A stretch of DNA of 64,000 nucleotides from Mobula hypostoma. Its lineage: Eukaryota. Below the pieces are notes generated by a model. That model saw only the letters and a program-made list of their open reading frames with translations. It made no database searches and was not told where the DNA came from. This document shows, in pieces, positions 40,840 through 51,880 of the stretch (the first letter of the stretch is position 1; each line of letters starts with the position of its first letter). Both the position numbers and the translations under genes were made by a program. Location of the stretch: assembly GCF_963921235.1 (NCBI RefSeq), contig NC_086097.1, positions 112,098,001 to 112,162,000 on the forward strand. Reading direction: 5' to 3'.

Positions 40840-42680
40840 GGGCATTCCTTCCATGGCTGCTAGTCAAATGCAACATTGGGCCCTGGAGCTATCTGCACGT
40901 CAGTACAATATAAATTACACCATTCAACTGGTGATGGACTATCCAGATTTCCCTTAGCTGATACAGCTCCAGAACCATACCTCAAGGAAGCACCTGATGA
41001 CTTTGGCGCAAGTCCAGAAGTACACACATACTGACCCTGGTCTATCTAAAGTGGACATACTAACTCATGAATGGAAAGGAAAGCCAACTGTAGGATTGAA
41101 ATCTTACCAGGCTTGATGGAAGGAGTTCACAGTTCAAGCAAGATGTTTACTTTGGAGCTACTGAGTTGTCATCCACCAGCATTAAGAAAGCAAGTGCTTG
41201 ACAAACTATATGCAGGACCCTGTGGCGCAGTGTGCATGAAAGTACACAGCTACTTATAGTGGCCAGGAATGGATGTAACCATTGAAGAGTAGGCCAAAGC
41301 ATGTCCACATTGTCGGCGAGTGAGAAATATTCCTCAGCTTTCTCCTCTGCATCCATGAGAATGGTCTGAAGAACCATGGCAGAGTATTCACATAGATTTT
41401 GCAGGACCAGTAGACCATGTTCTTGGTCATAGTGGACAGACACAGCAAATGGCCTGATGCTGCCATCATGAAGAGCATTACATCTGAAAAATGCATTGAG
41501 GAGCTACACTCCATCTTCAGCTGTTTTGGACTTCCTCAACAGCTTGTAAGTGACAATGGCTCAAAACCCCTGTCTGAAGAGTTCAAGGCATTTATGGGAG
41601 CAAATGGTATTCAGCACATCAAGTCAGCACCATATCACCCAGTCACTCATGGCTCTGCTGAACGATTCGTACAAACGTTGAAACAAGCCCTCAACTCCTC
41701 AGTGGGGAATAGATCCCTCAACCTTTCTTGTTGACATACCATAACACACCTCACACCACCACCAAAACGGCTCCAGCTGCTGCACATAGCTTAACCTGCT
41801 TAGACTCCAAACAAAAACAGATTTTGCTAAATGAACAGAAAAATGTGCCAAATGTAGTACAAAAGTTTCACTACAGGAGAGAGTGTACTTGCCCGGAACT
41901 ACATCTCTGGAACAATGTGGATTCTTGTGACAGTGGTGGTACAAACTGGTAATGTGTCATACACAGTGGAAACTAGTAATCACAACATCTGGAGAAGACA
42001 AGTTGATCTTCTGTTCCCACTCTGAGGCTACTGAAAACCAACACAAACTTACCAATCCTGATCCAGCTGTAGAAATGGGACAGGATTCTGAGACAACAAC
42101 TACAAAACTTCCGTTAAGATCAAATAACACAGGCACTGCTCCTCCATCACCTGTGCTTTCTGAGGTTCTCCCCCTACTGACAAAGCAGTACCTAAGTCAA
42201 GATCTATACTACACCACCAAGAGATAAAATGTCTTTGGCGTCATCCTCCAGGTCGTCAGTTCCCTCACAGGAACAGGCAGCCTCCAGAAAGATTGAACCT
42301 CTAGTTTAGTGACTAACCCTCAGCACATGGGAAGAATAATTCCCAGTGTTATGTCTGGGAGTAGAGATAGTCCCTTGTATAGAAAAAAAACATCTTTTGT
42401 TGTTGGTTGAATTTGATAATTACTCCATTGAATGTTAATAGTTCAGCAGCTGGTCTGAGAGTGGGAAGGGGGAGAAACCTTTAAAATAAGGGGGGCCTGG
42501 ATATCTCATGTATTCATTTATATTTTGACCCTTATGGGCTGCTGTCGAGCTGCTCCGTGTGTTACATACTGAAGGTAATAGGAGAGGACATTCTGGATAG
42601 ATGACTTACAAGTAAAATAAACATCAGCACCTTTCCATATCTTGTGTGTTATTCACGGCTGCCTGGCTTCCCAGTACTAC
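40840..42680 (+). mobile_element. Decayed Gypsy-type LTR retrotransposon 3' part (integrase, PPT, partial LTR)
   Basis: ORF 41417..41734 FLVIVDRHSKWP...FGLPQQLVSDNG...SAPYHP..GSAERFVQTLK (rve DDE core). Upstream zinc-finger remnant WPGMD..ACPHC. Polypurine tract 'gagagtgggaagggggagaa' at about 42457-42477. Possible LTR end '..tactaca' at 42680. Confidence 0.85.
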
Positions 42681-43119
42681 AAACAGAACAGTTTCAGTCG
42701 GGTTTTAGAGCAAACCATAACATGGTGACGGCCTTTACCAAAAATGTCAGCAGCACTGATGCCAACAGAGTCTCAGTTATAACTCTATTAGATTTAAGCG
42801 TTGTCTTCGACACAATTGACCATCATATTCTCTAAGATAATTTTGAGAACTGGGTTGAACTCTCTGGTAGCTCCCTTAATTGGTTTCACTCATTAATCTG
42901 AGAGAGAAAAAGGTTTGTTTGTCTTGGGGACTAGTTTTCTCTGAGATACGATGTACCATTCGATGTTGCTTGGGGAAGCTGTCTTGGTTCCCTACTCTTC
43001 TCCATATACATACTCTCCTCAGGAGACATCATTGGAGAGTATAAACTTGATTTGCTCTGAAGTACAAAGTTGTTCCCAAAGTAAAAAGAGATAAACTTCT
43101 TGATGAACTTGGGAACATG

Positions 43120-43362
43120 GTAGTAATCTCGGGATTACTGCCTATGCCATGCGACAGTGAGAGTAGGGATGCGATGAGGTGGAGGATAAATGCGTGGCTG
43201 AGGGATTGGAGCAGGGAGCAGGGATTCATGTTTTTGGATCATTGGGACCTCTTTTGGCGCAGGCGTGACCTCTACAAAAAGGACGGGATACACTTGAATC
43301 CTAGGGGGACCAATATCCTGGCAGGGAGATTAGCGGGGGCTACTGAGGTGACTTTAAACTAG
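43120..43362 (+). CDS. CR1 ORF1 C-terminal part (SGNH/GDSL esterase-like), 5'-truncated
   Basis: VVISGLLP...INAWLRDWSREQGFMFLDHW...YKKDGIHLNPRG contains the DGxH block of SGNH hydrolases known from CR1 ORF1. The ATG at 43117 lies at the junction with the host L2. Confidence 0.85.
   Translation, partial: VVISGLLPMPCDSESRDAMRWRINAWLRDWSREQGFMFLDHWDLFWRRRDLYKKDGIHLNPRGTNILAGRLAGATEVTLN
43353..43359 (+). other. Candidate -1 ribosomal frameshift slippery site U_UUA_AAC
   Basis: ORF1 ends acT TTA AAC TAG. The -1 frame reads TTT AAA CTA GAA TGG TTG and is the ORF2 frame. Confidence 0.65.
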
Positions 43363-43367
43363 AATGG

Positions 43368-46300
43368 TTGGGGGGTGGGAATCAAATTAAAGAGACTAGG
43401 CGTGAGGAGGTTAGTTCACAACAGAGGGATGGGAACCAGTGCAGAGAGACAGAGGGGTGTAAAGTGAGGGTAGAAGCAAAAAGTACTAAGGAGAAAAGTA
43501 AAAGTGGCAGGCCGACAAGTCCAGGGCAAGCATTAAAAAGGGCCACTTTTCAATATAATTGTATAAGGGCTAAGGGAGTTGTAAAAGAGCGCCTGAAGGC
43601 TTTATGTGTCAATGCAAGGAGCATTCGTAATAGGGTGGATGAATTGAAAGTGCAGATTGTTATTAATGATTATGATATAGTTGGGATCACAGAGACATGG
43701 CTCCAGGGTGACCAGGGATGGGAGCTCAACGTTCAGGGATATTCAATATTCAGGAGGGACAGACATGAAGGAAGGGGAGGTGGGGTGGCGTTGCTGGTTA
43801 AAGAAGAGATTAACGCAATAGAAAGGAAAGACATAAGCCAGGAAGATGTGGAATCAATATGGGTAGAGCTGCGTAACACTAAGGGGCAGAAGACGCTGGT
43901 GGGAGTTGTGTACAGGCCACCTAACAGTAGTAGTGAGGTCGGAGATGGTATTAAACAGGAAATTAGAAATGTGTGCAATAAAGGAACAGCAGTTATAATG
44001 GGTGACTTCAATCTACATGTAGATTGGGTGAACCAAATTGGTAAAGGTGCTGAGGAAGAGGATTTCTCGGAATGTATGCGGGATGGTTTTTTGAACCAAC
44101 ATGTCGAGGAACCAACTAGAGAGCAGGCTATTCTGGACTGGGTTTTGAGCAATGAGGAAGGGTTAATTAGCGATCTTGTCGTGAGAGGCCCCTTGGGTAA
44201 GAGTGACCATAATATGGTGGAATTCTTCATTAAGATGGAGAGTGACACAGTTAATTCAGAAACAAAGGTTCTGAACTTAAAGAGGGGTAACTTTGAAGGT
44301 ATGAGACGTGAATTAACTAACAAAGACTGGCAAATGACACTTAAAGGATTGACGGTGGATATGCAATGGCAAGCATTTAAAGATTGCATGGATGAACTAC
44401 AACAATTGTTCATCCCAGTTTGGCAAAAGAATAAATCAAGGAAGGTAGTGCACCCGTGGCTGACAAGAGAAATTAGGGATAGTATCAATTCCAAAGAAGA
44501 AGCATACAAATTAGCCAGAGAAAGTGGCTCACCTGAGGACTGGGAGAAATTCAGAGTTCAGCAGAGGAGGACAAAGGGCTTAATTAGGAAGGGGAAAAAA
44601 GATTATGAGAGAAAACTGGCAGGGAACATAAAAACGGACTGTAAAAGCTTTTATAGATATGTAAAAAGGAAAAGACTGGTAAAGACAAATGTAGGTCCCT
44701 TGCAGACAGAAACCGGTGAATTGATTATGGGGAGCAAGGACATGGCAGAACAATTGAATAATTACTTTGGTTCTGTCTTCACTAAGGAGGACATAAATAA
44801 TCTTCCAGAAATAGTAGGGGACAGAGGGTCCAGTGAGATGGAGGAACTGAGCGAAATACATGTTAGTAGGGAAGTGGTGTTAGGTAAATTGAAGGGATTG
44901 AAGGCAGATAAATCCCCAGGGCCAGATGGTCTGCATCCTAGAGTGCTTAAGGAAGTAGCCCAAGAAATAGTGGATGCATTAGTGATAATTTTTCAAAACT
45001 CGTTAGATTCTGGACTAGTTCCTGAGGATTGGAGGGTGGCTAATGTAACTCCACTTTTTAAAAAAGGAGGGAGAGAGAAACCGGGGAATTATAGACCGGT
45101 TAGCCTAACGTCGGTGGTGGGGAAACTGCTGGAGTCAGTTATCAAGGATGTGATAACAGCACATTTGGAAAGCGGTGAAATGATCGGACAAAGTCAGCAT
45201 GGATTTGTGAAAGGAAAATCATGTCTGACGAATCTCATAGAATTTTTTGAGGATGTAACTAGTAGAGTGGATAGGGGAGAACCAGTGGATGTGGTATATT
45301 TGGATTTTCAAAAGGCTTTTGACAAGGTCCCACACAGGAGATTAGTGTGCAAACTTAAAGCACACGGTATTGGGGGTAAGGTATTGGTGTGGGTGGAGAA
45401 TTGGTTAGCAGACAGGAAGCAAAGAGTGGGAATAAACGGGACCTTTTCAGAATGGCAGGCAGTGACTAGTGGGGTACCGCAAGGCTCAGTGCTGGGACCC
45501 CAGTTGTTTACAATATATATTAATGACTTGGATGAGGGAATTAAATGCAGCATCTCCAAGTTTGCGGATGACACGAAGCTGGGTGGCAGTGTTAGCAGTG
45601 AGGAGGATGCTAAGAGGATGCAGGGTGACTTGGATAGGTTGGGTGAGTGGGCAAATTCATGGCAGATGCAATTTAATGTGGATAAATGTGAAGTTATCCA
45701 CTTTGGTGGCAAAAATAGGAAAACAGATTATTATCTGAATGGTGGCCGATTAGGAAAAGGGGAGGTGCAACGAGACCTGGGTGTCATTATACACCAGTCA
45801 TTGAAAGTGGGCATGCAGGTACAGCAGGCGGTGAAAAAGGCGAATGGTATGCTGGCATTTATAGTGAGAGGATTCGAGTACAGGAGCAGGGAGGTACTAC
45901 TGCAGTTGTACAAGGCCTTGGTGAGACCACACCTGGAGTATTGTGTGCAGTTTTGGTCCCCTAATCTGAGGAAAGACATCTTTGCCATAGAGGGAGTACA
46001 AAGAAGGTTCACCAGATTGATTCCTGGGATGGCAGGACTTTCATATGAAGAAAGACTGGATGAACTGGGCTTGTACTCGTTGGAATTTAGAAGATTGAGG
46101 GGGGATCTTATTGAAACGTATAAGATCCTAAAGGGATTGGACAGGCTAGATGCAGGAAGATTGTTCCCGATGTTGGGGAAGTCCAGAACGAGAGGCCACA
46201 GTTTGAGGATAGAGGGGAAGCCTTTTAGGACCGAGATTAGGAAAAACTTCTTCACACAGAGAGTGGTGAATCTGTGGAATTCTCTGCCACAGGAAACAGT

Positions 46301-46400
46301 TGAGGCCAGTTCATTGGCTATATTTAAGAGGGAGTTAGATATGGCCCTTGTGGCTACGGGGGTCAGGGGGTATGGAGGGAAGGCTGGGGTGGGGTTCTGA
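43368..46400 (+). CDS. CR1 ORF2: APE endonuclease plus reverse transcriptase (true start uncertain)
   Basis: 1010 open codons. APE motifs NARS, ITETWL, VYRPP, MGDFN, SDHN. RT motifs KSPGPDG, LDFQKAFDKVPH, GVPQGSVLGP, KFADD. The annotated start is TTG and the frame is open from 43347. Confidence 0.95.
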   Translation: MGGGNQIKETRREEVSSQQRDGNQCRETEGCKVRVEAKSTKEKSKSGRPTSPGQALKRATFQYNCIRAKGVVKERLKALCVNARSIRNRVDELKVQIVINDYDIVGITETWLQGDQGWELNVQGYSIFRRDRHEGRGGGVALLVKEEINAIERKDISQEDVESIWVELRNTKGQKTLVGVVYRPPNSSSEVGDGIKQEIRNVCNKGTAVIMGDFNLHVDWVNQIGKGAEEEDFSECMRDGFLNQHVEEPTREQAILDWVLSNEEGLISDLVVRGPLGKSDHNMVEFFIKMESDTVNSETKVLNLKRGNFEGMRRELTNKDWQMTLKGLTVDMQWQAFKDCMDELQQLFIPVWQKNKSRKVVHPWLTREIRDSINSKEEAYKLARESGSPEDWEKFRVQQRRTKGLIRKGKKDYERKLAGNIKTDCKSFYRYVKRKRLVKTNVGPLQTETGELIMGSKDMAEQLNNYFGSVFTKEDINNLPEIVGDRGSSEMEELSEIHVSREVVLGKLKGLKADKSPGPDGLHPRVLKEVAQEIVDALVIIFQNSLDSGLVPEDWRVANVTPLFKKGGREKPGNYRPVSLTSVVGKLLESVIKDVITAHLESGEMIGQSQHGFVKGKSCLTNLIEFFEDVTSRVDRGEPVDVVYLDFQKAFDKVPHRRLVCKLKAHGIGGKVLVWVENWLADRKQRVGINGTFSEWQAVTSGVPQGSVLGPQLFTIYINDLDEGIKCSISKFADDTKLGGSVSSEEDAKRMQGDLDRLGEWANSWQMQFNVDKCEVIHFGGKNRKTDYYLNGGRLGKGEVQRDLGVIIHQSLKVGMQVQQAVKKANGMLAFIVRGFEYRSREVLLQLYKALVRPHLEYCVQFWSPNLRKDIFAIEGVQRRFTRLIPGMAGLSYEERLDELGLYSLEFRRLRGDLIETYKILKGLDRLDAGRLFPMLGKSRTRGHSLRIEGKPFRTEIRKNFFTQRVVNLWNSLPQETVEASSLAIFKRELDMALVATGVRGYGGKAGVGF

Positions 46401-47092
46401 GTTGGATGATCAGCCATGATCATAATAAATGGCGGTGCAGGCTCGAAGGGCCGAATGGCCTACTCCTGCACCTATTTTCTATGTTTCTATGTTTCTATGT
46501 TTCCTTATAGAATCAGAAGTTACATACCTGGGTGTTAACCTTGATTCAGATTTGAATTTCAATTACCATATGAAGAAAGTGACCAGAGTGGCATTTCTAC
46601 TCTTAGAAAATATTGCACAGGTATGCCTGTTTCTCTCATGTAATGATGCTTAGAAACTAATTCATGCCTTTTTATCAAATAGACTGGATTACTGCAATGC
46701 ACTTTTTACTGGCCTTCCAAAGCAATCTATCGATAAACTCCAAATCATTAAGTGCACTGCTGCTAGACTTTCAGCTAAAACCAGTATGAGGGAGCATGTC
46801 ACTCCCATCCAAACTACTCTACATTGGCTTCCTGTATCTTTTACAATTTATTTTAAAGTTCTCTAACTTGTTTTTAAAACTCTGGGACAGGAGTTCATCA
46901 CAAAATCATTTTCATTTTATAATCCAGCTCAAGATCTCAGGTCTTCTTCTGCCAGTCTCATATAGTTAAACAATCTCCCTCAAAAGCTAATTGTTATGTC
47001 AGCTTTATTGTAATATGCTCCTAAACTGTGAACTTCAATACCTAAAACTTTAAATGATCCAAGTACAGTTGACAATTTTAAGCATCAGCTTG

Positions 47093-49563
47093 AGACCATA
47101 AGACCATAATATACAGAGGCAGAATTAGGCCATTTGGCCCATCGAGTCTGCTCTGTAATTTATTTTGTCTGGTCCAATTTTCCTCTCAGCCCCAATCTCC
47201 TGCTGTGTCTCCATATCCCTTCATGCTCTGACCAATCAAGAACCTATCAAGCTCTCCCTTAAATATACATAAAGACTTTGCCTCCGCAGCTGCCTGGCAG
47301 TGAATTCCACAGATTCACCACTCTCTGGCTAAAGGAATTCCTCTTCATCTTTGTTCTAAAAGGATGCCCCTCTATCCTGAGGTTGTGTCCCCGGTCTTAG
47401 ATTCTCTCACCATGAGAAACATCCTCTCCATATCCACACTATCAAGGCCCTTCACCATTCGATAGGTTTCAGTGAGGTCATCCCTCATTCTTCTGAACGC
47501 TCTTCATATGACAAATCATTCAATCCTGGAATCATTTTTGTGGACCTCCTTTGAACCCTCTCCAATTACAGCACATCTTTTCTAAGATAACAGGCCCCAA
47601 ACTGCTCAGAATACTCCAAGTGAGGCCTCATCAGTGCTTTATAAAGTCTGAGCATTACATCCTTGCTTGTATATTCTCGTCCTCTTTGAATAAATGCTAA
47701 CATTGCATTTGCTTTCCTCACCACAGACACAACCTGCAAATTAACCTTTGGGAAACCTGCACAAGGACTCCCAAGTCCCTTTTCACCTCAGTTTTTTTGT
47801 ATTTTCTCTCCATTTAGAAAATAGTCAACCCTTTCATTTCCTCCACTGTATTTCATCTGCCATTTCTTTGCCAATTCTTCTAATCTGTTGAAGTCCTTCT
47901 ATAGCCTCTCTACTTCCTCAAAACTACCTGCCTCTCTACCCATCTTCATATCATCTGCAGACTTTGCAACAAAGCCATCAATTCCATCATCCAAATCATT
48001 GACATATAATGTAAAAAGTATTGGTCCCTGCACAGACCCCTGTGGAACACCACTAGTCACCGGCACCCAGCTGGAAAAGGCTCCCTTCATTCCTACTCTT
48101 TGCATCCTGTTAATCAGCCACTGCTTTATCCATGCTAGAATCTTTCCTGTAATACCATGGGTTCGTAACTTGTTAAGCAGCCTCATGTGTGGCACCTTGT
48201 CAAAGGCCTTCTGAAAATTAAAGTATAGAACATCAACCAATTCTCCTTTGTCTAACTTGCTTGTTATTTCTTTAAAGAATTCCACAGATTTGTCAGGCAA
48301 GATTTTCCATTGAGGAATCTATGGTGACTATGGCCTATTTTATCATATGCCTCCAAGTTCCCCATGACCTCATCCTTAATAATCGACTCCAACAATTTTC
48401 CCAACTGCTGAGGTCAGAATAACTGGCATATAGTTTCCTTTCTCCTGTTTCTCTCACTTCTTGAACAGTGTAGTGACAATTGCAATTTTCTAGTCTTCTG
48501 GAACCATTCCAGAATCTAGTGATCCTTGAAAGATCATTGCTAATACCTCCACAATCTCCTCAGCCGATTCTTTCTGAACCCTGGGTTGTACACTATTTGA
48601 TCTAGGTGACTTATCTACCTTCAGACTTTCAGTTTACCAAGAACCTTCTCTCTAGTTAGGGTAACTTCATACACTTCATGACCCCGACACCTGGAACTTC
48701 CACCATACTGCTAGTGAAGACTGACACAAAAAACTTATTCAGTCCAACTGCCATTTCATTACTAACTCACCAGCATTGTATTCCAGTGCTCTGATATCCA
48801 TTCTCTCCACTCGTTTACACTTTCTGTTTCTGGAGAAACTGTTGGTATCCTCTTTCGTATTATTGGCTAGCTTACTTTCATATTCCTTCTTTACCTTCTT
48901 TATGACGTTTTTAGTTGCCTTCTGTTGGTTTTAAAAATCTTCTGAATCCTCTAACTTCCCACTAATCTTTGTTCTATTATATGCACTCTCTGTGGCTTTT
49001 ATATTGGTTTTGACTTCTCTTGTTAGTCATGGTTGTGTCATCTTTGCTTTAGAATACTTCTTCCTTTTTGGCATGTATGTATCCTATGCCTTCCAAATTG
49101 CTTTCAGAAATTCCAGACATTGTTGCTCAGCCATCATCCCTGCCAGTGTTCTTTTCCAATCAGTTCTGGCCAACACCTCTCTCATACCTCTGTCATCTGC
49201 TTTACTCCACTGTAATAATGATACATTTGACTTTAGCTACTCCTTCTCAAATTTCAGGGTGATTTTGATCATATTATGATCACACTCCCCTTGGGGTTCT
49301 TTAACATTAAGCTATCTAAACAATTCTGGTTCATTGAAAAATATCCATTCCAGAATAGCTGATACTCTAGTGGGCTCAACCACGAGCTGCTCTATAAAGC
49401 CATCTCATAGGCACTCTAGAAGTTTCCCCTCCTGGAATACAGCACCAACCTAATTTTCCCAATCTACCTCCATATTGAATTCCCCATGACTATTGTAACA
49501 TTGTGCTTTTGGCATGGATTTCCTGTCCCCTGCTGTAATTTGTAGACCACCTCCTTCCTGCTG
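47093..49563 (-). mobile_element. Older decayed CR1 spanning APE to 3' tail
   Basis: ORF 47899..48300 FNFQKAFDKVPH...GVPQGSVQGP...KSADD. Tail 'agaccataagaccata' at 47093. Confidence 0.92.
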
Positions 49564-49711: not shown

Positions 49712-51880
49712 GTATTTTTTTTCACAACTCAAGCTGGTAAAACCTGAGGTACGGGCATAGCCAAACACACTCATTTCTCAATTGTTAGGAACTTTCCGAC
49801 TATTCTAGTGGTGTTTAGTATTCTGGAGATTTACACAGGTATTACTGTGCAGGCCTAATTGTTTAATGCTATTGTGTAGTGACTTTGTGATGACACCAGT
49901 TGTAGATATCACAATTGGGACCATGTATACCCTGTTCATGTTCTATAGTCTTTCAATTTCTTCTTTTAATTCCGCATATTTCTGTTGTTTTTCACTTACT
50001 GATTTCTGTAAGTTACGTGTATTTGGAATAGCTATATCTATTAAGTAAGTTGTTCTTGCTTGTTTATCCTGTAATATTATATCTGAATGGTTATTATGGA
50101 TTGTCTTATCTGTAATAACGGATCAGTTGTAATATAATTTGTTGCACTCTGACTCTAAAACGGGATTCAAAGATTCAAAGTACATTTATTATCAAAGAAC
50201 CATTTACTATCATACAACCTTGAGATTTGTCTATTTATAAGCAGCTGCAAAGCAAGAAACCTGAAAGAACCCAATTTAAAAGAAGGACCCATTCCCAATG
50301 TTTAGAGACAGAGAAAAAAGACACAAGTCATGCAAACAACAGAAGCCACCCTTGCACCTGGGTTAATTGGATGGGCATCAGAACTCCTTTGCATTAGCTT
50401 CTCCTCTCCAAATCGTTCACTCTAACAAGCATGGCTCCAACTCCAAGTGCATTGATTTTGCAGCTCGCCAGCACGGCACATCTCTTAAATTTACTTCGCC
50501 TTCGCTCACCTCTTCTTTGTTTGCGGTAATAGTTTACAACAATTTACTTCAAAAGAAGTGTTACTACTTATGTTTTTAATCAGGCTTGTATTTATAATAA
50601 GGTCTTGTGTCTTTAATGAATTTGTATTTTAAAGCAAAACGTTGGTGAATAATGATGTTTAACACTAGATTAGGCCTGTGTAAGTAATTAGATTGAGTTA
50701 AACTGCTGCAGGATCCTGTAACGTGTTTAATTGTTTCTGGTTTCTCTTGGCATCTTCTGCAGTTATCATCTTGAATTTGTTGGTCTTTTATTATGTATTT
50801 TTGATAATTTTTTTATGTTACCCACCTGGTCTTGTATTGCCACAAGGAACCTCTCTGTTTCTGGGAAGAGGTCTCCAACTCTGAGCCAGGCGTTCAACGC
50901 TTCCTTGTCAACGTTTAGTCTGCTCAGATCATAGGAATGTCTTCCAAGGAGGATCATGCTCTTCGTTTGGTTAACCTTATCTTCTATAGTCCTGAACTCT
51001 TCATTTTTCTGTGTTGGGCTTTCTTTTAAGTTTGATAGTGTGTACTTCTTACCAGAATTGCATATGCTTGTGTGGAGTTCTGAATCCTGTTTGCATTGAT
51101 GAAAATATATCCTTAGAAGGTTTATCTGACTGTTGTGTAAAATTTTTATGTCTGTTATTCCCCTTCCTCTTTCTGTCCTAGGTAGTGTTAATCTAAGTGT
51201 GTTCGATGTACATAGTGGGTTCCAAAATTTGTCATTTCAGTTTTTATTTTCCTTTGTAAATTTTCCAGATCAGTTTCAGACCAAGATATCATGTCAAAAG
51301 AATACAGTAATATTGGTATAGCAAATGTGGTTATTGACTTCGTTGTATTTTTACTGTTGAGTTCTGTTTGGAAGATTTTCTTAAGCCTTGAAGTAAATTC
51401 TGTTGAAAGTTTTACCTTTATTGCACTATGATATATTTTCTTTGCTTATTGATATCCCAGATACTTGTATTTTTCAATTTTATCCATCAGTTGTATTGTA
51501 TCCTGCTGCTCTGTTTTGCATTCTACTAGCTCTATTGCACCTTTCTTTATGTTTGACGTTTGGCATTTATCTAGTCCAAAGGTCATGTTCATATCTTTAG
51601 AATTGTTCCACTATTTGAATGAACCGCTTTTGCTTTACTGATGAAAGAGTGTATAATTTCAAATCCTCCATGTAGAGAAGGTTTGTCAAGGAATAATTCG
51701 TTAGATTGTTCTGATTTGATACCCTATTTTCATCTGATTTAGTGAATTGGGAACGGGTTTAGAGCTAGATAAAACCATAGTGGGCTTAGAGAGTCACCCT
51801 GGAAAATGCCTTGGTTTGTTTTGATATTGGTGGTTTACCAAACACGTGCAACAGCTCATTGGTAGTTCAAAAGACAAGAA
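49712..51880 (-). mobile_element. 5'-truncated R4/Dong-like non-LTR element (RT, CCHC, restriction-like endonuclease), decayed
   Basis: Manual minus-strand translation gives GIFQGDSLSPLWF (about 51810), LLYMEDLKLY (about 51680), GDLFPETERFLVAIQDQV (ORF 50766..50957), CRRCQEKPETIKHVTGSC (about 50760) and TDKTIHNNHSDII...LIDIAIP (about 50110). Interrupted by another repeat at about 50165-50575. Confidence 0.88.

Follow-up and report, generated by a model that had tools for sequence, protein, structure and literature searches.

In L1, translation of the second open reading frame (ORF2) follows termination at the end of ORF1 and reinitiation, which gives a separate ORF2 protein (ORF2p); this mode goes with non-overlapping frames and an AUG ahead of the endonuclease, and L1 tolerates non-AUG starts. 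The long interspersed elements (LINEs) that have been worked out use reinitiation, and the route of ORF2 translation is an open question, called "not clear" in a passage of one study (PMC3708506). For the Dictyostelium elements TRE5-A and TRE3-A, non-long-terminal-repeat (non-LTR) retrotransposons with an apurinic/apyrimidinic-type endonuclease (APE), a passage of another paper states that a −1 frameshift is needed (PMC5911963). CR1 LINEs are described, in passages of two further papers, as the main repeat in the genomes of chicken (PMC11835228) and reptiles (PMC6609765). Here we analyse the ORF1/ORF2 junction of a CR1 copy in a 64,000-nucleotide stretch of Mobula hypostoma DNA (NC_086097.1, positions 112,098,001 to 112,162,000; hereafter the window, in which all coordinates are numbered), where ORF1 encodes an esterase and ORF2 an APE and a reverse transcriptase (RT). 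The layout of this junction, its phase and its pattern are conserved across distant relatives. On comparative grounds, the best reading is that full-length elements of this kind use programmed −1 frameshifting, which would give an esterase–linker–APE–RT fusion; we put its probability at roughly 80%.

The junction is built around U_UUA_AAC, an efficient −1 slip site in coronaviruses, and comprises the following features.

43344..43346, forward strand: last stop (TGA) in the ORF2 frame, leaving an overlap of 13 nt with ORF1.
43353..43359, forward strand: slippery heptamer U_UUA_AAC (TTTAAAC, read T TTA AAC in the ORF1 frame).
43360..43362, forward strand: ORF1 stop UAG directly 3′ of the heptamer, a candidate stimulator; the stop adjoins the heptamer in 21 of 21 loci ending in LN* or GN*.
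43363..43595, forward strand: linker of about 77–80 codons, open in the ORF2 frame only (the other frames have 5 and 9 stops).
43364..43390, forward strand: out-of-frame ORF of eight codons opened by the first AUG past the ORF1 stop.
43370..43375, forward strand: run of six G (G6), 11 nt past the heptamer, within a G-rich tract at 43366–43379; a candidate stimulator.
43464..43466, forward strand: ORF2 codon 40, which is GTG here and ATG in many other members of the family; a possible reinitiation site.
43998..44000, forward strand: first in-frame ATG of ORF2 (codon 218, IMGDFN), within the endonuclease.

The original prediction, which had proposed a frameshift here from the letters of the window, described the site accurately. 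The heptamer is phased in the ORF1 frame with TAG next to it, and ORF2 occupies the −1 frame of ORF1, open from 43347 after the TGA and ending at 46400. The first ATG of ORF2 indeed lies inside the endonuclease, after the NARS (43611) and ITETW (43686) motifs, while the ATG at 43364 belongs to the third frame, and the G-rich tract begins 7 nt past the heptamer. The word TTTAAAC is by itself unremarkable, occurring 20 times on the two strands of the window; a canonical heptamer in phase within the 13-nt overlap has a probability of about 0.003 against the element's own background.

Relatives were collected by scanning three collections for the esterase active-site motif with no condition on the junction, which returned 2, 63 and 31 loci (96 in total). 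With the window included, 43 matches had an esterase profile score above 30 and a stop; the start of the APE was present in 32 and absent from the contig in 11. An overlap of one codon or more between the APE frame and ORF1 is seen in 22 loci, which cluster at a 75% cut-off into 12 families. The construction rules out frame 0, and since the loci were chosen as open in the linker, probabilities of linker openness would be circular. The overlap lies in the −1 frame in all 22 loci and in the +1 frame in none, among families whose ORF2 endonuclease starts are mostly 31–67% identical. A canonical in-phase heptamer is present in the overlap of 10 of the 12 families against 0.5 expected, out-of-phase heptamers number zero, and the remaining two families have the near-canonical G_GAU_UUU and G_AAU_UUU. 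The canonical sites are of four kinds: U_UUA_AAC, G_GGA_AAC and A_AAA_AAC in three families each, and G_GGU_UUU together with U_UUU_UUA in one. The first three of these heptamers and G_GGU_UUU are counted among the most shifty heptamers for mammalian ribosomes in the relevant passage of a review (Atkins 2016). The −1 phase, whose conservation the original prediction had asked about, holds throughout these loci, and TTTAAAC itself is found in three families, the others having different heptamers of the same or a near-canonical pattern.

The codons are as constrained as the phase. In 21 of 21 loci ending in LN* or GN* they read NNT TTA AAC or NNG GGA AAC, a choice to which codon usage gives a probability of 0.01–0.12 per family (seven families; the estimate for an eighth is degenerate). 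In the A_AAA_AAC families, the heptamer lies 37–40 nt ahead of the stop and thus not in a termination context. Because the pattern is kept while its letters change, programmed −1 frameshifting is the best reading, and the comparison as a whole—one phase in all loci, canonical heptamers of four kinds, fixed synonymous codons—supports the interpretation first put forward for this copy. As a weak control, the last 15 codons were checked in 36 other motif matches, mostly GC-rich, that lack an ORF2 match, and not one has such a heptamer; protein-seeded locus searches of viral contigs gave no matches. A quick tree, with Shimodaira–Hasegawa-like approximate likelihood ratio support only, puts G_GGA_AAC at two separate positions, with support values of 90 and 94, which at most suggests that it arose repeatedly.

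The collected loci are also of interest in their own right. In locus L065, 19–10 nt before the ORF1 stop, G_GGU_UUU and U_UUU_UUA stand in tandem and are followed by GGG, as at the HIV-1 site with its 3′ GGG. Elements combining an esterase with APE-RT occur far from the vertebrate group (the L009–L094 family, L023, L028, L037, L044, L045, L054, L059 and L065); esterase ORF1s were found solely in vertebrate CR1/L2 subgroups of Repbase, as stated in a passage of an earlier survey (PMC4120745). CR1 LINEs are present in bacterial metagenome-assembled genomes (MAGs) of GTDB (L066, L072, L079, L082, L089–L094 and L096), with a Metamycoplasmataceae bin (11 matching contigs) and a Methylococcales bin among the bins bearing them, which points to eukaryotic contamination. 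We infer that the metagenome and MAG contigs holding relatives are animal DNA.

The same pattern can be followed at the level of the ORF1 protein (ORF1p). All 13 close homologues have LN at the same position, in 12 of them with the stop directly next to it. Adding 150 distant matches gave 163 proteins, 100 of which have the catalytic DGxH and 95 a tail of 22–40 residues; 52 of these tails end in LN and nine in GN, and after removal of redundancy (n = 68) the endings are LN in 26, GN in 8 and other in 34. T_TTA_AAC and G_GGA_AAC require, respectively, a T-codable residue before LN and Q before GN, which matches the tails seen: a residue without a T-ending codon precedes LN in one of 26 tails, versus a background of 19% (p = 0.03), and Q precedes GN in 8 of 8 non-redundant tails. 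Named species with an LN end include rays, a sawshark, a sturgeon, an eel, turtles, the lizard Anolis and a snake. In one turtle protein, whose frame changes upstream, the junction reads SFKLG, as RALN* does in the −1 frame. The terminal LN lies past the last helix of a low-confidence model (mean predicted local distance difference test score 55) and past the match to PDB 4C1B. The tail after DGxH ranges from 24 to 153 residues, and the heptamer nonetheless stays in the overlap. DGLHP-type relatives, apparently L2 elements, have other C-terminal ends. Long proteins containing both an esterase and an RT were considered as natural fusions and rejected: P0188 has its domains the other way round, and P0187 and P0190 appear to be joined gene models.

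Start codons ahead of the endonuclease bear directly on how ORF2 is reached. Family copies were sampled through contigs of four sequencing runs (X1, X5, X9 and X11) aligned to 43090–43720; X9 may be an RNA run. The original prediction had called ORF2 AUG-less and had named an in-frame AUG upstream of the APE in the family as a finding that would count against it. For this copy the description holds; family-wide it does not, and that finding is partly borne out, since a G>A change at 43464 that turns codon 40 from GTG into ATG is common. It accounts for 23% of X1 depth, 97% of X5 depth and 7% of X9 depth; the single X11 contig does not have it. The GTG form makes up about three quarters of the X1 depth, and in this copy it has an A at −3 and is preceded by out-of-frame AUGs at 43364 and 43429. 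Reinitiation 102 nt past the ORF1 stop is thus possible in some subfamilies. Nine of the 12 families lack an AUG in frame ahead of the APE Asn; the remaining three do have one, but only 2–4 codons from it. Judged by the L1 mode, the frames here overlap and this copy has no AUG before the endonuclease, though many family copies have one; a SART1-like start, whose AUG shares bases with the ORF1 stop and is set in the frame of ORF2, is not found in this copy, its AUG at 43364 lying in the third frame. None of the 40 variants listed out of 107 falls within 43337–43394, which we do not count as evidence of invariance.

What would stimulate the shift is less obvious. Over the 70 nt past the heptamer, all but one of 18 loci (z −1.4 to +1.7 in the 17) fold no better than shuffled sequences do, and for this copy (z −0.5 to +1.0) we reject a hairpin downstream. 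The hairpin or pseudoknot 5–9 nt downstream that completes a canonical cassette was not found among nested folds and long-range pairings, and the junction is therefore classed as a variant of that cassette. Instead, 10 of the 11 loci with an adjacent stop have a run of five to seven G that starts at +10 or +11 from the heptamer; G6 is found only 0–1 times per 3 kb of ORF2 (five elements checked). The central −1-frame codon of the run is always GGG, although GGG makes up 9–34% of Gly codons in these elements, so the constraint looks to act on the RNA. Of the G-rich candidate stimulator in the original prediction, what is conserved is a short run at a fixed distance; a quadruplex does not look like a general explanation, the G4Hunter score being 1.48 in this copy, 1.80–1.88 in L028 and L037, and 0.96–1.16 in L004, L005, L009, L069 and L090. 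A search for a long-range partner of the run found none above shuffles. For this copy the best partner, which lies in the 3′ untranslated region (UTR), scored −20.0 against −17.9 ± 2.2 for shuffles, which is not significant. In the window (46455–46475), L079, L090 and L094, the best or second-best partner falls in the pyrimidine-rich 3′ UTR, again not above shuffles, a weak lead to a long-range interaction. One G_GGA_AAC-stop family (L044), with an ORF1 tail of 153 residues, has a strong hairpin (z −3.7) in place of the G run, which suggests that hairpin and G run are interchangeable stimulators. A classical pseudoknot is a less likely stimulator. Our best guess, by analogy and the least certain part of this analysis, is that slow termination at the adjacent stop may act together with a single-stranded G run at +10/+11 that binds a protein or engages the mRNA channel; this is speculative.

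Three other explanations were weighed against programmed frameshifting. Ribosomes might stop at UAG and restart at the AUG or GUG of codon 40, or at a UAAUG, making a separate ORF2p. The ATG at 43464, which reaches 23–97% of depth in two DNA runs, speaks for such a restart, as do this copy's GTG with its A at −3, the TAATG variant seen in X9 and the joint conservation of stop and G run; SART1 uses UAAUG, according to a passage of PMC3708506. Nevertheless, termination–reinitiation does not predict that X_XXY_YYZ should be kept through four changes of letters, that synonymous codons should be fixed, that the overlap should be −1 in 22 of 22 loci or that heptamers should stand 37–40 nt upstream of a stop, and it must contend with nine of 12 families having no AUG and with the two out-of-frame AUGs before codon 40 here. 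We consider it unlikely as the general route, though it could operate alongside frameshifting in AUG-bearing subfamilies. The overlap might otherwise be incidental to a need of ORF1p for a C-terminal Leu-Asn, given that 52 of 95 tails end in this pair. This idea is largely refuted and very improbable: the codons are fixed in 21 of 21 loci, sister lineages with a GN end or an internal KN keep the same nucleotide pattern, the heptamer holds at the overlap while tail length varies from 24 to 153 residues, and LN lies outside the fold and is replaced by other ends in the DGLHP-type relatives. Similarly improbable is that transcriptional slippage, or another one-base insertion, joins the frames in a minority of RNAs. 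The A6/T6 runs of the A_AAA_AAC and U_UUU_UUA families would be suited to it, and copies do differ by bases gained or lost in G runs (4% deletion at 43370); yet TTTAAAC and GGGAAAC contain no long homopolymer, the G run lies 3′ of the ORF1 stop and cannot join the frames, and polymerase slippage has no need of the conserved codon phase.

Several observations weigh against programmed frameshifting itself. The families are kin, so that the nominal p of 3e-14 overstates their independence; the real argument, as far as sequence comparison goes, is not this value but the change of letters under a constant pattern. Ten of the 32 loci are broken between the junction and the APE, nine of them resembling TTTAAAC families. 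A canonical heptamer is missing from the tenth, L010, and one of the nine, L052, counts formally as +1, its overlap being 2 nt, but is one G short of its family. At the protein level, the 34 non-redundant tails with other endings count here, as do the 27 of 95 tails ending in pairs outside LN and the GN-like pairs checked at the DNA level, and no natural in-frame esterase–APE–RT protein was found in what was a weak search. To these are added the codon-40 ATG of many copies, a divergent loose end in X9 with a TAATG stop–start overlap right after a retained heptamer and its AUG in the −1 frame, and the lack of both a stable hairpin and a long-range partner for the G run above shuffles. Finally, the functions of ORF1 have been argued, in a passage of Odon 2013 (PMC3708506), to need its production separately from ORF2p.

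If programmed frameshifting does operate, most ribosomes would stop at UAG and release an ORF1p of about 311 residues. In a minority, tRNA-Leu and tRNA-Asn would re-pair on UUU and AAA, and CUA would be read next; these ribosomes would cross the linker and go on through APE and RT, making a fusion protein about 1,320 residues long with TLN/LEW at its junction. The slip would set a ratio resembling that of Gag to Gag-Pol and would couple the enzyme to the ORF1p and the RNA that belong to it. A broader and distinctly tentative proposal, which we hold to be somewhat less probable than its negation, is that esterase-type CR1 LINEs from rays to reptiles, and in deep animal lineages, make a Gag-Pol-like RT fusion by a structure-free −1 shift whose drivers are the neighbouring stop and a G run fixed at +11, the run being either protein-bound or folded into a minimal quadruplex.

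The copy that carries the junction has these parts.

43119..46503, forward strand: young, 5′-truncated CR1 LINE copy; family reads start at 43119, and loose ends extend upstream in all four runs.
43119..43362, forward strand: C-terminal part of ORF1 (SGNH/GDSL esterase), ending ...EVTLN*; Pfam Lipase_GDSL_2 E 5e-7, under the curated cut-off for the fragment.
43347..46400, forward strand: ORF2, intact, 1017 codons, with APE (NARS at 43611 to SDH at 44202) and RT (about 45069–45722).
46434..46503, forward strand: 3′ hairpin (46434–46472) and (CTATGTTT)x4 tail, an 8-mer repeat; folding z −2.2 for 46400–46503.

What remains of the element measures 3.4 kb; the 5′ UTR and the promoter are gone, as are about two thirds of ORF1. 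The copy is therefore probably not itself translated, and our claim concerns full-length elements of the family. A 3′ hairpin followed by an 8-nt tandem repeat in place of poly(A) is a CR1 feature, and both are present here along with an ORF2 containing APE and RT. The nearest named relative of the ORF1 fragment is a 311-residue Mobula protein (91% identity), and the ORF1 family profile matches PDB 4C1B with E 3e-34. Of a type IVB ORF1, in which a zinc finger and a coiled coil precede the esterase, this truncated copy retains the esterase; the CxxC pairs and the long helix of the N-terminus appear in relatives of full length alone. The identity of ORF2 is 27% with an L2-like protein of carp and about 40–44% with its metagenome relatives. 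Halves of an older L2-like LINE RT flank the copy (42605–43042 and 46759–47097, forward strand), making it a nested insertion; a search around it revealed no clear target-site duplication. Elsewhere in the window, a second, decayed esterase-type CR1 (about 26893–23614, reverse strand) has lost its ORF1/ORF2 junction by deletion, ORF1 running into APE near residue 195, and the remaining CR1 copies are 3′ fragments without a junction. An open stretch at about 49900–50200 (reverse strand) resembles the end of a restriction-like-endonuclease-type (RLE-type) LINE that bears the endonuclease, and a broken LTR-retrotransposon integrase fragment (Pfam rve) lies at 41147–42300 (forward strand).

In the literature searched, we found no statement of frameshifting in CR1; the founding CR1 papers lay outside its scope, and an earlier remark there is possible. 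CR1 is not mentioned in the first 300,000 characters of a 2016 review of frameshifting (PMC5009743), and the word "frameshift" has zero occurrences in PMC3905857 and PMC3708506. Were the proposal true, ORF2p would bear ORF1p at its N-terminus, with consequences for ORF2 annotation, particle assembly and the expression of CR1 in retrotransposition assays. The G run would be a candidate stimulator of a type described as not yet known in nature in the part of the 2016 review that bears on it (PMC5009743). A structure-free shift relying on stop and G run would then constitute a new class of natural stimulator, in a very abundant vertebrate transposon family.

Compared with known systems, the CR1 junction resembles a viral gag-pol −1 site in its heptamers, its phase and the order of a structural protein upstream and a polymerase in the −1 frame, and differs from it in that no stable 3′ hairpin was found while the stop is directly next to the heptamer and a G run stands at +10/+11. 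An adjacent stop is itself known from the gag-pol shift site of Rous sarcoma virus. In porcine reproductive and respiratory syndrome virus (PRRSV), a C-rich motif lies about 10 nt downstream of the shift site. There, the nsp2 frameshift is stimulated by nsp1-beta and PCBP, as described in a section of the 2016 review (PMC5009743). PRRSV may thus offer an analogy to CR1, with a short single-stranded motif at a fixed distance replacing a structure, although the CR1 motif is G-rich. A passage of the same review gives G_GAU_UUU_UGG_UAG of pea enation mosaic virus (PEMV) as a site whose stop is required (PMC5009743). The arrangement recurs in L045, where G_GAU_UUU is followed by one codon and then a stop; PEMV is an RNA virus, and stop dependence is only hypothetical for CR1.

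Among retrotransposons, TRE5-A and TRE3-A are like CR1 in having an APE-RT ORF2 behind ORF1, but belong to another clade in another host kingdom and have an unrelated ORF1, and the passage on them names no slippery site. SART1, as presented in a passage of PMC3708506, also has a bicistronic LINE RNA, but its UAAUG coupling yields a separate ORF2p, whereas here there are a −1 overlap and a slippery site. The ZfL2-1 esterase (PDB 4C1B), treated in a passage of PMC3905857, shares the esterase type of ORF1, the relatives added here coming from metagenome contigs. A closely matching architecture is that of CR1 subgroup 7 with a type IVB ORF1 (PMC4120745, in a passage silent on frameshifting), which combines a zinc finger/leucine zipper and esterase ORF1 with an APE-RT ORF2, as in the family analysed here.

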